Shown: piece after piece, positions 2,165-2,584 of the stretch
Position numbering within the stretch: position 1 is the stretch's first letter
Layout: each line of letters opens with the position of its first letter
DNA from: a virus
Taxonomy: Duplodnaviria; Heunggongvirae; Uroviricota; Caudoviricetes
DNA: 8,847 nucleotides
Virus record (IMG/VR): IMGVR_UViG_2534681993_000021
Location: 1-8,847 of that record
Strand: one strand, 5' to 3'
Program-made: the position numbers and the translations under genes
Notes under the pieces: generated by a model
The model's database searches: none
What the model was told of the DNA's origin: nothing
The model's input: only the letters and a program-made list of their open reading frames with translations

Positions 2165-2407
2165 TTAGCGAACAAACCACTCGTCAGCAGACTCCCAGGT
2201 ATCTTTCAGCGTCTCCTGAACAAAAGTTTTTGCAGAATCTTTATCGGCGGTGCGAGTAACTGAAAGGCCATCGTTGCTGGTGGATTTGATGATCACTTCT
2301 ACATCGTCATAACGTTTACTGACACGTCGCAGCATTTCTTGTTGCAGGGCAGGAACAGAACCTTTTGGCATTTTGTTGATTTTGGCTGCGGGGTATCTGT
2401 GGGGCAT
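2165..2407 (-). CDS. Hypothetical small protein (about 68-80 aa); start uncertain
   Basis: The ORF track start at 2512 is GTG and the first 35 codons are hydrophobic and AT-rich. In-frame ATGs at 2405-2407 and 2369-2371 both lack a clear SD. The C-terminal 68 aa are charged and protein-like. It lies just downstream of int on the same strand. Confidence 0.35.
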
Positions 2408-2584
2408 ATATGGGACATAAAAAGGCCTCAAATAAACAGCAAAATCGAGATTAGGGATTTTTAGAAAAAATGCAACTATCTGAAAAAACGTAGAAAACGC
2501 CAAGGAACCCACAGGATGTGAAAAAACACCTGTGAATTATGGATTTCAAGAGTCATTCAATCTAACTAATTGATAAATAAAAAA

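Follow-up and report, generated by a model that had tools for sequence, protein, structure and literature searches.

Described ydfJ phages and the window

We start from the attachment site of phage lambda, in which an attP of about 250 bp lies immediately downstream of int-xis, direct-repeat arm sites flank the core at about -140/-125 and +65/+80, the P' arm sites are separated from the core by an IHF site, and the integrase (Int) has a separate arm-binding domain. The site that we describe, with its candidate protein sites, resembles the lambda attP in this geometry. It differs in several other respects: the lambda attP sequence is unrelated to ours, the arm-binding domain of our Int (PF12167) is presumably not of the family of the lambda Int N-domain, the excisionase (Xis) is of the DUF1233 type, and the target lies inside an open reading frame (ydfJ) whereas the lambda attB is intergenic, between gal and bio.

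Closer systems are known in E. coli. The ydfJ att site and tandem arrays of the prophages that use it (PPydfJ) have already been described (Nakamura et al. 2021, PLoS Pathog, PMC8112680), and the ends of the Qin prophage are annotated in K-12. The PPydfJ prophages of STEC and EPEC have the same target gene (ydfJ), core and type of int as our site. Their att is defined as 18 or 19 bp (S7 legend), a tandem PPydfJ-L/PPydfJ-R is reported in the O26:H11 strain 11368, and a PCR product of the attP-flanking region from PPydfJ-R of this strain is described (all PMC8112680). The left unit in 11368 carries nleC as cargo, and the internal junction runs nleC-DinI-att-int, as in our sequence. Qin of K-12 also has the same core and the same target, with P and P' arms that are about 90% identical to ours and with the arm-type repeats conserved. 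It differs in that attL and attR are split 20 kb apart, intQ is a pseudogene, and the cargo beside the P arm is ynfT-ydfK-pinQ, without dinI and nleC. In the free phages mEp460_ev081 (LR597641.1), HannyBb (PP925841.1), Tritos and PhiR42_1, the P-O-P' site together with int-xis-exo is about 89-92% identical to ours, but what adjoins the P arm on its left is cargo of the invertase/ydfK type, not dinI and nleC.

The window (the whole stretch of DNA that was analyzed, 8,847 nucleotides) is lambdoid phage DNA throughout. In our main reading, to which we assign a probability of about 0.9, the segment at about 2400-2650 is a complete attP-type P-O-P' site of a Qin-family, ydfJ-integrating lambdoid phage (PPydfJ). 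To its right, on the minus strand, is a tyrosine integrase of 431 aa (2585..3880) with the Pfam domains PF12167 Arm-DNA-bind_2 (84.1 bits) and PF00589 Phage_integrase (69.1 bits) and a distant match to solved tyrosine recombinases. A putative excisionase of the DUF1233 family (3900..4151, minus strand; Pfam, 108.1 bits) is adjacent, and beyond it come a large exonuclease gene and then a cI/cro/ydaT-type immunity region. The locus combines what is expected of an attP, that is, an Int with arm-binding and catalytic domains, a common core at which the flanks are swapped, and a neighboring Xis. Integration in the 5' region of ydfJ and an att of 18/19 bp place it in the PPydfJ/Qin family. At the far right, several near-identical genomes lose their match at 8502, in a ydaT-like ORF (8020-8571) or at the start of the replication region, while O145 genomes keep matching to 8847; the early region has a mosaic break point at ~8502.

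The main value of the result is for annotation, since it places the core at 2537-2547 and identifies nleC and the DinI-like remnant as phage cargo. Internal attP sites of the ydfJ type are typically found in effector-rich STEC/EPEC prophage arrays. The published picture, in which prophage stacking and recombination accumulate type III effector genes, fits this result and is left unchanged by it.

The attachment core and its arms

We turn to the core. The segment 1800-2700 of the window was searched against complete E. coli genomes; 155 genomes contain the whole segment, and many more match to about 2550 and then continue into a 5'-truncated ydfJ. Aligned with such a ydfJ-truncated junction, the window breaks off at 2547-2550. 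The window was aligned with three junctions, the attR of STEC 2013C-4187 and the two ends of K-12 Qin, attL (intQ/ynfP) and attR. It tracks attR to the left of the core (P arm) and attL to the right (P', into int). The core at 2537..2547, which is defined by this four-way alignment, by the attL, attR and attB sequences and by the break points, is TTATGGATTTC, an uninterrupted 11-bp identity in attP, attB, attL and attR. It starts 38 bp beyond the int stop (2585), so the initial annotation was right to expect the attP core just beyond int. When one indel and one mismatch are allowed, the shared segment widens to 2533-2550 (TGAA-TTATGGATTTCaAG), with 18 bp in attP and 19 bp in attB, a length that by alignment matches the published 18/19-bp att of PPydfJ (PMC8112680).

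A 1-nt indel separates the attP core from that of attB immediately left of the 11-bp identity. In attP, TTATGGAT lies between the halves of an imperfect dyad (GTGAA/TTCAA). The candidate 7-bp overlap based on this dyad is not adopted, and no exact overlap region is assigned, because the indel in attB shifts the spacing.

The core is single-copy, with no second copy or direct repeat in the window, and the comparison with attL, attR and attB of other genomes stands in for a direct-repeat test within the window. A 201-nt probe (2440-2640), centered on the core, was compared with 5426 complete E. coli genomes and matches 3183 of them. The sampled matches of the attR type stop at 2547 (a few at 2550), and those of the attL type start at 2533. 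A contiguous P-O-P' is present in 280 of the 5426 genomes (~5%). Joining the host side of attL to the host side of attR gives a predicted attB, and this sequence is found at 100% identity over its full length. At least 80% of it, as uninterrupted ydfJ, is held by 2010 of the 5426 genomes; occupied and empty ydfJ sites are thus both present in the population. In the intact ydfJ the core covers codons 27-31 (E-F-M-D-F), and of the two kinds of target that had been proposed, protein-coding or intergenic, the former applies. The same proposal held that no tRNA-like sequence is present, which agrees with ARAGORN, by which the window has neither a tRNA nor a tmRNA, and a tRNA as the integration target was rejected.

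A canonical attL is seen in O145:NM FWSEC0002, where the order is rspB, the 5' end of ydfJ, the core and int. The Int at this rspB-ydfJ'/attL junction is identical to that of the window at 431 of 431 residues, and therefore the specificity of the Int for ydfJ is fixed.

Does the site mark the end of a prophage, as was first supposed? At a prophage/chromosome junction (attL), host DNA or a host gene would lie to the left of the core, and both the presence of an att core just past int and the lack of a second core copy in the window are in keeping with this. However, it is the P arm, conserved in the free phages and in the attR of K-12 Qin, that is found to the left of the core, and a true attL carries the 5' end of ydfJ there, a sequence that is absent from the window. 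In the four free phages named above, the same uninterrupted P-O-P' is found upstream of int, and the homology starts exactly at 2400. Moving away from int, one passes from the P arm into cargo: to the left of ~2400 the window encodes the C-terminus of a tail fibre (34-378, plus strand) and the type III effector nleC (808..1794, plus strand; Peptidase_M85), not chromosomal genes. Together with dinI, these travel as the right ends of prophages. Stx2a prophage records match the window from 12 to 2547, ending exactly at the last base of the core, and in many genomes nleC and the DinI-like gene form the prophage right end that abuts the truncated ydfJ. The tail fibre, nleC, the ykgJ-like fragment described below and dinI are phage cargo, not host DNA, and we regard a chromosomal junction at this place as extremely improbable. 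The prophage boundary of the initial annotation is not upheld, nor is the reconstituted 3' end of a host gene, since phage DNA is on both flanks; the locus is an attP in its unrecombined form, surrounded by phage DNA. An att repeat to the left of nleC had been named as the sign that the small gene and nleC belong to the same prophage. The window has no such repeat, although comparison of genomes still shows both genes to be prophage-borne.

The P arm (2400..2536) is delimited by the homology to the free phages and to the K-12 Qin attR, which starts from ~2400, and its portion at 2462-2536 is almost invariant. The P' arm (2548..2650) is contiguous with int in the attL of K-12 Qin and of O145:NM FWSEC0002; it overlaps the last ~22 codons of int, and its outer limit at 2650 is approximate. 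Just past the int stop, the sequence had been described as AT-rich for some 70 bp, and this is borne out by a content of 73.6% AT over the 72 bp from 2513 to 2584, compared with 54.4% for the whole window.

The heptamer TGGGRCA occurs four times in the 8.8-kb window, every time at the att site, as two direct pairs with a spacing of 11 bp. The pair in the P arm (TGGGGCAtataTGGGACA, 2400..2417, plus strand) is centered at about -134 from the core, and the pair in the P' arm (TGGGGCAtggtTGGGGCA, 2607..2624, plus strand), which is inside the int coding sequence, is centered at about +74. While the single heptamer is not over-represented (4 found vs 2.3 expected), 2 pairs are found where 0.03 would be expected by chance. 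Both pairs are invariant in four copies of attP, and the conservation of the P' pair could stem from coding. Between the core and the P' candidate sites, at the position of H' in lambda, there is a perfect match to the IHF consensus (WATCAANNNNTTR: TATCAATTAGTTA; 2563..2575, minus strand), one of just two perfect matches in 8.8 kb. In the P arm, no match to this consensus with one mismatch or fewer is found. From these patterns we infer that the TGGGRCA pairs may be the arm sites of Int and that 2563-2575 may be an IHF site.

The P arm also contains A-tracts at 2462-2530, with GAAAAAA at about 2464, 2481 and 2519 and GAAAAC at about 2494, and two direct copies of ATSTGAAAAAAC (2478-2489 and 2516-2527). 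Across all the attP and attR copies this stretch hardly varies, and its motifs might serve as sites for Xis or Fis or as intrinsic bends. A local CACAGG...CCTGTG hairpin adjoins the core. A consensus scan finds no terminator downstream of int, and the minus-strand fold of 2400-2590 is no better than that of shuffled sequences (z = -0.79), so that a sib-like RNA element is not indicated there. A search of Rfam with 1790-2700 gives nothing at the gathering thresholds and only two sub-threshold matches at the level of chance.

A set of interactions can be proposed for the recombination. Int (2585-3880) would bind core-type sites around TTATGGATTTC, its N-terminal arm-binding domain would bind the TGGGRCA pairs at 2400-2417 and 2607-2624, and the P' arm would be bent by IHF at 2563-2575. 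Recombination between the core and its identical 11-bp counterpart in ydfJ (codons 27-31) would then yield attL and attR. In attL, ydfJ' would be fused to P', making the 36-aa YnfP ORF, and in attR the P arm would be fused to a truncated ydfJ with its annotated ATG in the core. The DUF1233 excisionase would drive the reverse reaction. When read from the K-12 sequence, the fusion ORF at attL does end after 36 codons and is YnfP, and the annotated start of the truncated ydfJ is an ATG within the att core. The annotated K-12 YnfP (36 aa; locus excerpt 26729-26839) is the N-terminus of ydfJ fused to P' sequence at attL, and the "putative transporter YdfJ" of K-12 (locus excerpt 5003-6286) takes the core ATG as its start codon. 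Both annotations are by-products of the integration of Qin.

The DinI-like reading frame and the cargo on its left

Next to the P arm, on the same strand as int, a list of open reading frames made mechanically has a small ORF of 115 aa with a GTG start (2165-2512, minus strand). That this ORF is without a clear ribosome binding site holds: as read from the sequence, none of its possible starts (GTG 2512, ATG 2407, ATG 2371) has a properly spaced Shine-Dalgarno (SD) sequence. A comparison of the small ORF with databases, which the initial annotation had called for, identifies it as DinI-like by Pfam, by RefSeq and by tblastn against phages. The Pfam profile PF06183 DinI matches residues 49-113 with 62.9 bits (cut-off 24.2), covering positions 1-63 of its 63. 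RefSeq annotates a shorter DinI-like CDS of 80 aa (2165..2407, minus strand; 243 nt, identical sequence; WP_001120551.1). The encoded protein is 73% identical to the DinI-like protein of mEp460 and 36% identical to E. coli DinI over the alignment, and the C-terminal acidic helix motif is conserved.

The 5' portion of the mechanical ORF has a different origin. Homologues of DinI in phages align from about residue 44 of the 115 onward, and the match of residues 3-39 is to P-arm DNA of mEp460_ev081, which is non-coding. By these alignments the mechanical ORF is drawn too long: its codons upstream of ~2396 are a translation of the P arm and not gene, and 2408..2512 (minus strand) is a non-coding 5' extension. 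The full-length homologue in mEp460 (JQ182728.1) begins with MRIEICIAKEK, and upstream of it are a TTGACA promoter, two CTGT-N8-ACAG LexA boxes and a GAGGG ribosome binding site. In the window the homology to dinI ends at about 2390-2399, where the homology to the P arm starts. The first ~6-8 codons, with the strand MRIEICI, are replaced by the P arm, and the promoter, the LexA boxes and the ribosome binding site are missing. Compared with the DinI family (E. coli DinI and mEp460, JQ182728.1), the window copy is thus without the N-terminal strand and the upstream signals; it has the family domain and is not a complete gene with its own SOS signals. The pattern of a LexA box is found nowhere in the window, and a consensus scan finds no promoter-like site on the strand of the ORF. 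We conclude from these comparisons that the small ORF is a dinI-like gene truncated at its 5' end: this end and the SOS-regulated promoter were lost where the gene became fused to the P arm of attP, at the outer edge of the arm. The annotated dinI ATG (2405-2407) falls inside the candidate Int arm-binding pair of the P arm.

Could the small ORF still be a functional full-length gene, of 115 or 80 aa, that modulates RecA/SOS for the phage? The Pfam score far above the threshold, the intact C-terminal motif and the annotation of the identical protein WP_001120551.1 in the genomes inspected speak for it. A gene of either length is difficult to reconcile with the P-arm translation in residues 1 to ~40, with the absence of the MRIEICI strand, the promoter, both LexA boxes and the ribosome binding site of the full-length phage dinI, and with the lack of an SD at any candidate start and of a promoter-like site. 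In addition, related Stx2a prophages match residues 1-104 of the query only, and the alignment is lost over the conserved C-terminus. A functional gene is accordingly unlikely, and the DinI-like ORF is most likely a non-functional remnant, which, if it is expressed at all, is most likely expressed only via read-through from int.

Given that the ORF lacks its own promoter and follows attP on the same strand as int, one can also imagine that its expression depends on the att configuration, with read-through from int/pL taking place only if P and P' are joined. If this were the case, the remnant would be transcribed in the excised circle or at an array junction and would be silent in a simple prophage (attR), forming a position-dependent switch that is conceptually like the sib retroregulation of lambda. 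A DinI product could then feed back on RecA and on the induction of co-resident prophages. We consider this dependence a speculative idea with very little chance of being correct.

Between nleC and the P arm, the sequence at 1926-2315 is collinear with the ykgJ/ecpE region of K-12 at ~85% identity. It includes a captured segment of chromosomal type at 1926..2163, with the 5' end of ykgJ and a homologue of the ykgJ/ecpE intergenic region (~85% identity to K-12). The 5' end of ykgJ is a RefSeq pseudo-CDS (window 1916-2008, minus strand). The K-12 ykgJ/ecpE locus also carries a dinI-like 3' remnant, and the sequences suggest a common origin of the block of ykgJ fragment and dinI in phage and chromosome. 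The literature describes attB-in-PP_2, a ykgJ/ecpE-intergenic homologue of ~96 bp that is tied to effector loci of the nleC type and serves as a secondary attB for other lambdoid phages (PMC8112680). Our 1926-2163 is the probable location of this attB-in-PP_2, and there is no integrated phage in the copy at 1926-2163 of the window. Further left, a 63-aa plus-strand ORF (588-779) without a Pfam match is located between the tail-fibre C-terminus and nleC, and in one related genome a frameshifted tail-assembly pseudogene is annotated in the stretch 380-800.

Prophage arrays that carry the junction

An unrecombined site of this kind is found in a free or circular phage genome and at the internal junction of a two-unit array. 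In every close chromosomal relative that we found, the context is a two-unit prophage array. In O26:H11 11368 the tandem array is at ydfJ and reads rspB/int...nleC-DinI-junction-int...pinQ-ydfK-ynfT/'ydfJ; this copy is 96.6% identical to the window over 1800-2700 and 92.9% over the covered part of the whole window. The nearest relatives of the window (99.4-99.9%) have the array at the ttcA/Rac locus, unlike the O26 array at ydfJ. The best complete genome, CFSAN027343 (NZ_CP037943.1), covers 96% of the window at 99.4% identity, and 7_56_38A covers 78% at 97.4%. Both are 99.9-100% identical over 1800-2700, and the int of 7_56_38A differs from ours by a 3-nt indel. The array in these two genomes reads ttcA/intR...nleC-DinI-attP-int...NleG x3/uspF. 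The records of the closest relatives, NZ_CP037943.1 and NZ_CP074811.1, have the junction of the window in a two-unit array at Rac (ttcA/uspF), with an internal attP of the ydfJ type.

The window could instead come from a single phage, free, circular or replicating, or from a circularly permuted assembly, with 2400-2650 as its own attP. Its layout is indeed identical to the attP of the virion-derived mEp460_ev081 and HannyBb. Moreover, O26 11368 has one unit with an int of the same type at one end and nleC-DinI at the other, and the circular form of this unit would give exactly the window. On the other hand, the phage collection has no record in which nleC and dinI lie to the left of the junction and none that covers at least 80% of the window, nearly all the matches of the 1800-2700 segment are on chromosomes (15090 of 15133 places), and the genomes inspected show the junction inside two-unit arrays. 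A single phage is for these reasons quite unlikely. No complete E. coli genome or phage record holds the window at 100%, and this copy may sit in a tandem array, in an array made by homologous recombination or in a free phage.

We now consider how an array at the Rac locus may arise. CFSAN027343 carries attP, attL and attR, as three places for the 2440-2640 probe. At its ydfJ there is a second J-Lom-tail fibre-nleC-DinI end, with accessions of nleC, DinI and tail identical to those of the array. Several late proteins are identical between the two units of the Rac-locus array. It looks like the nleC phage was duplicated when a copy recombined homologously into another prophage; the 2021 paper (PMC8112680) leaves this route open. 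The event may have been the entry of a circular nleC phage into the Rac-site prophage via homologous recombination in late genes that the two share, or else an inversion by homologous recombination and a subsequent re-inversion mediated by Int.

STEC 2013C-4187 (NZ_CP027546.1) has a single hybrid prophage, ttcA/intR...nleC-DinI/'ydfJ, with a left end of the Rac type and a right end of the ydfJ type. This hybrid implies a large rearrangement, most likely an inversion across the terminus region by recombination between a Rac-site prophage and a ydfJ-site prophage, and recombination between prophages therefore does occur. In O121 RM8352 (NZ_CP028110.1; locus excerpt 6456-7105) a chromosomal P-O-P' joins a P arm of the Qin type, with pin-ydfK-ynfT cargo, to a P' and int of the type in the window. 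The P and P' variants therefore assort independently, as expected for hybrid array junctions.
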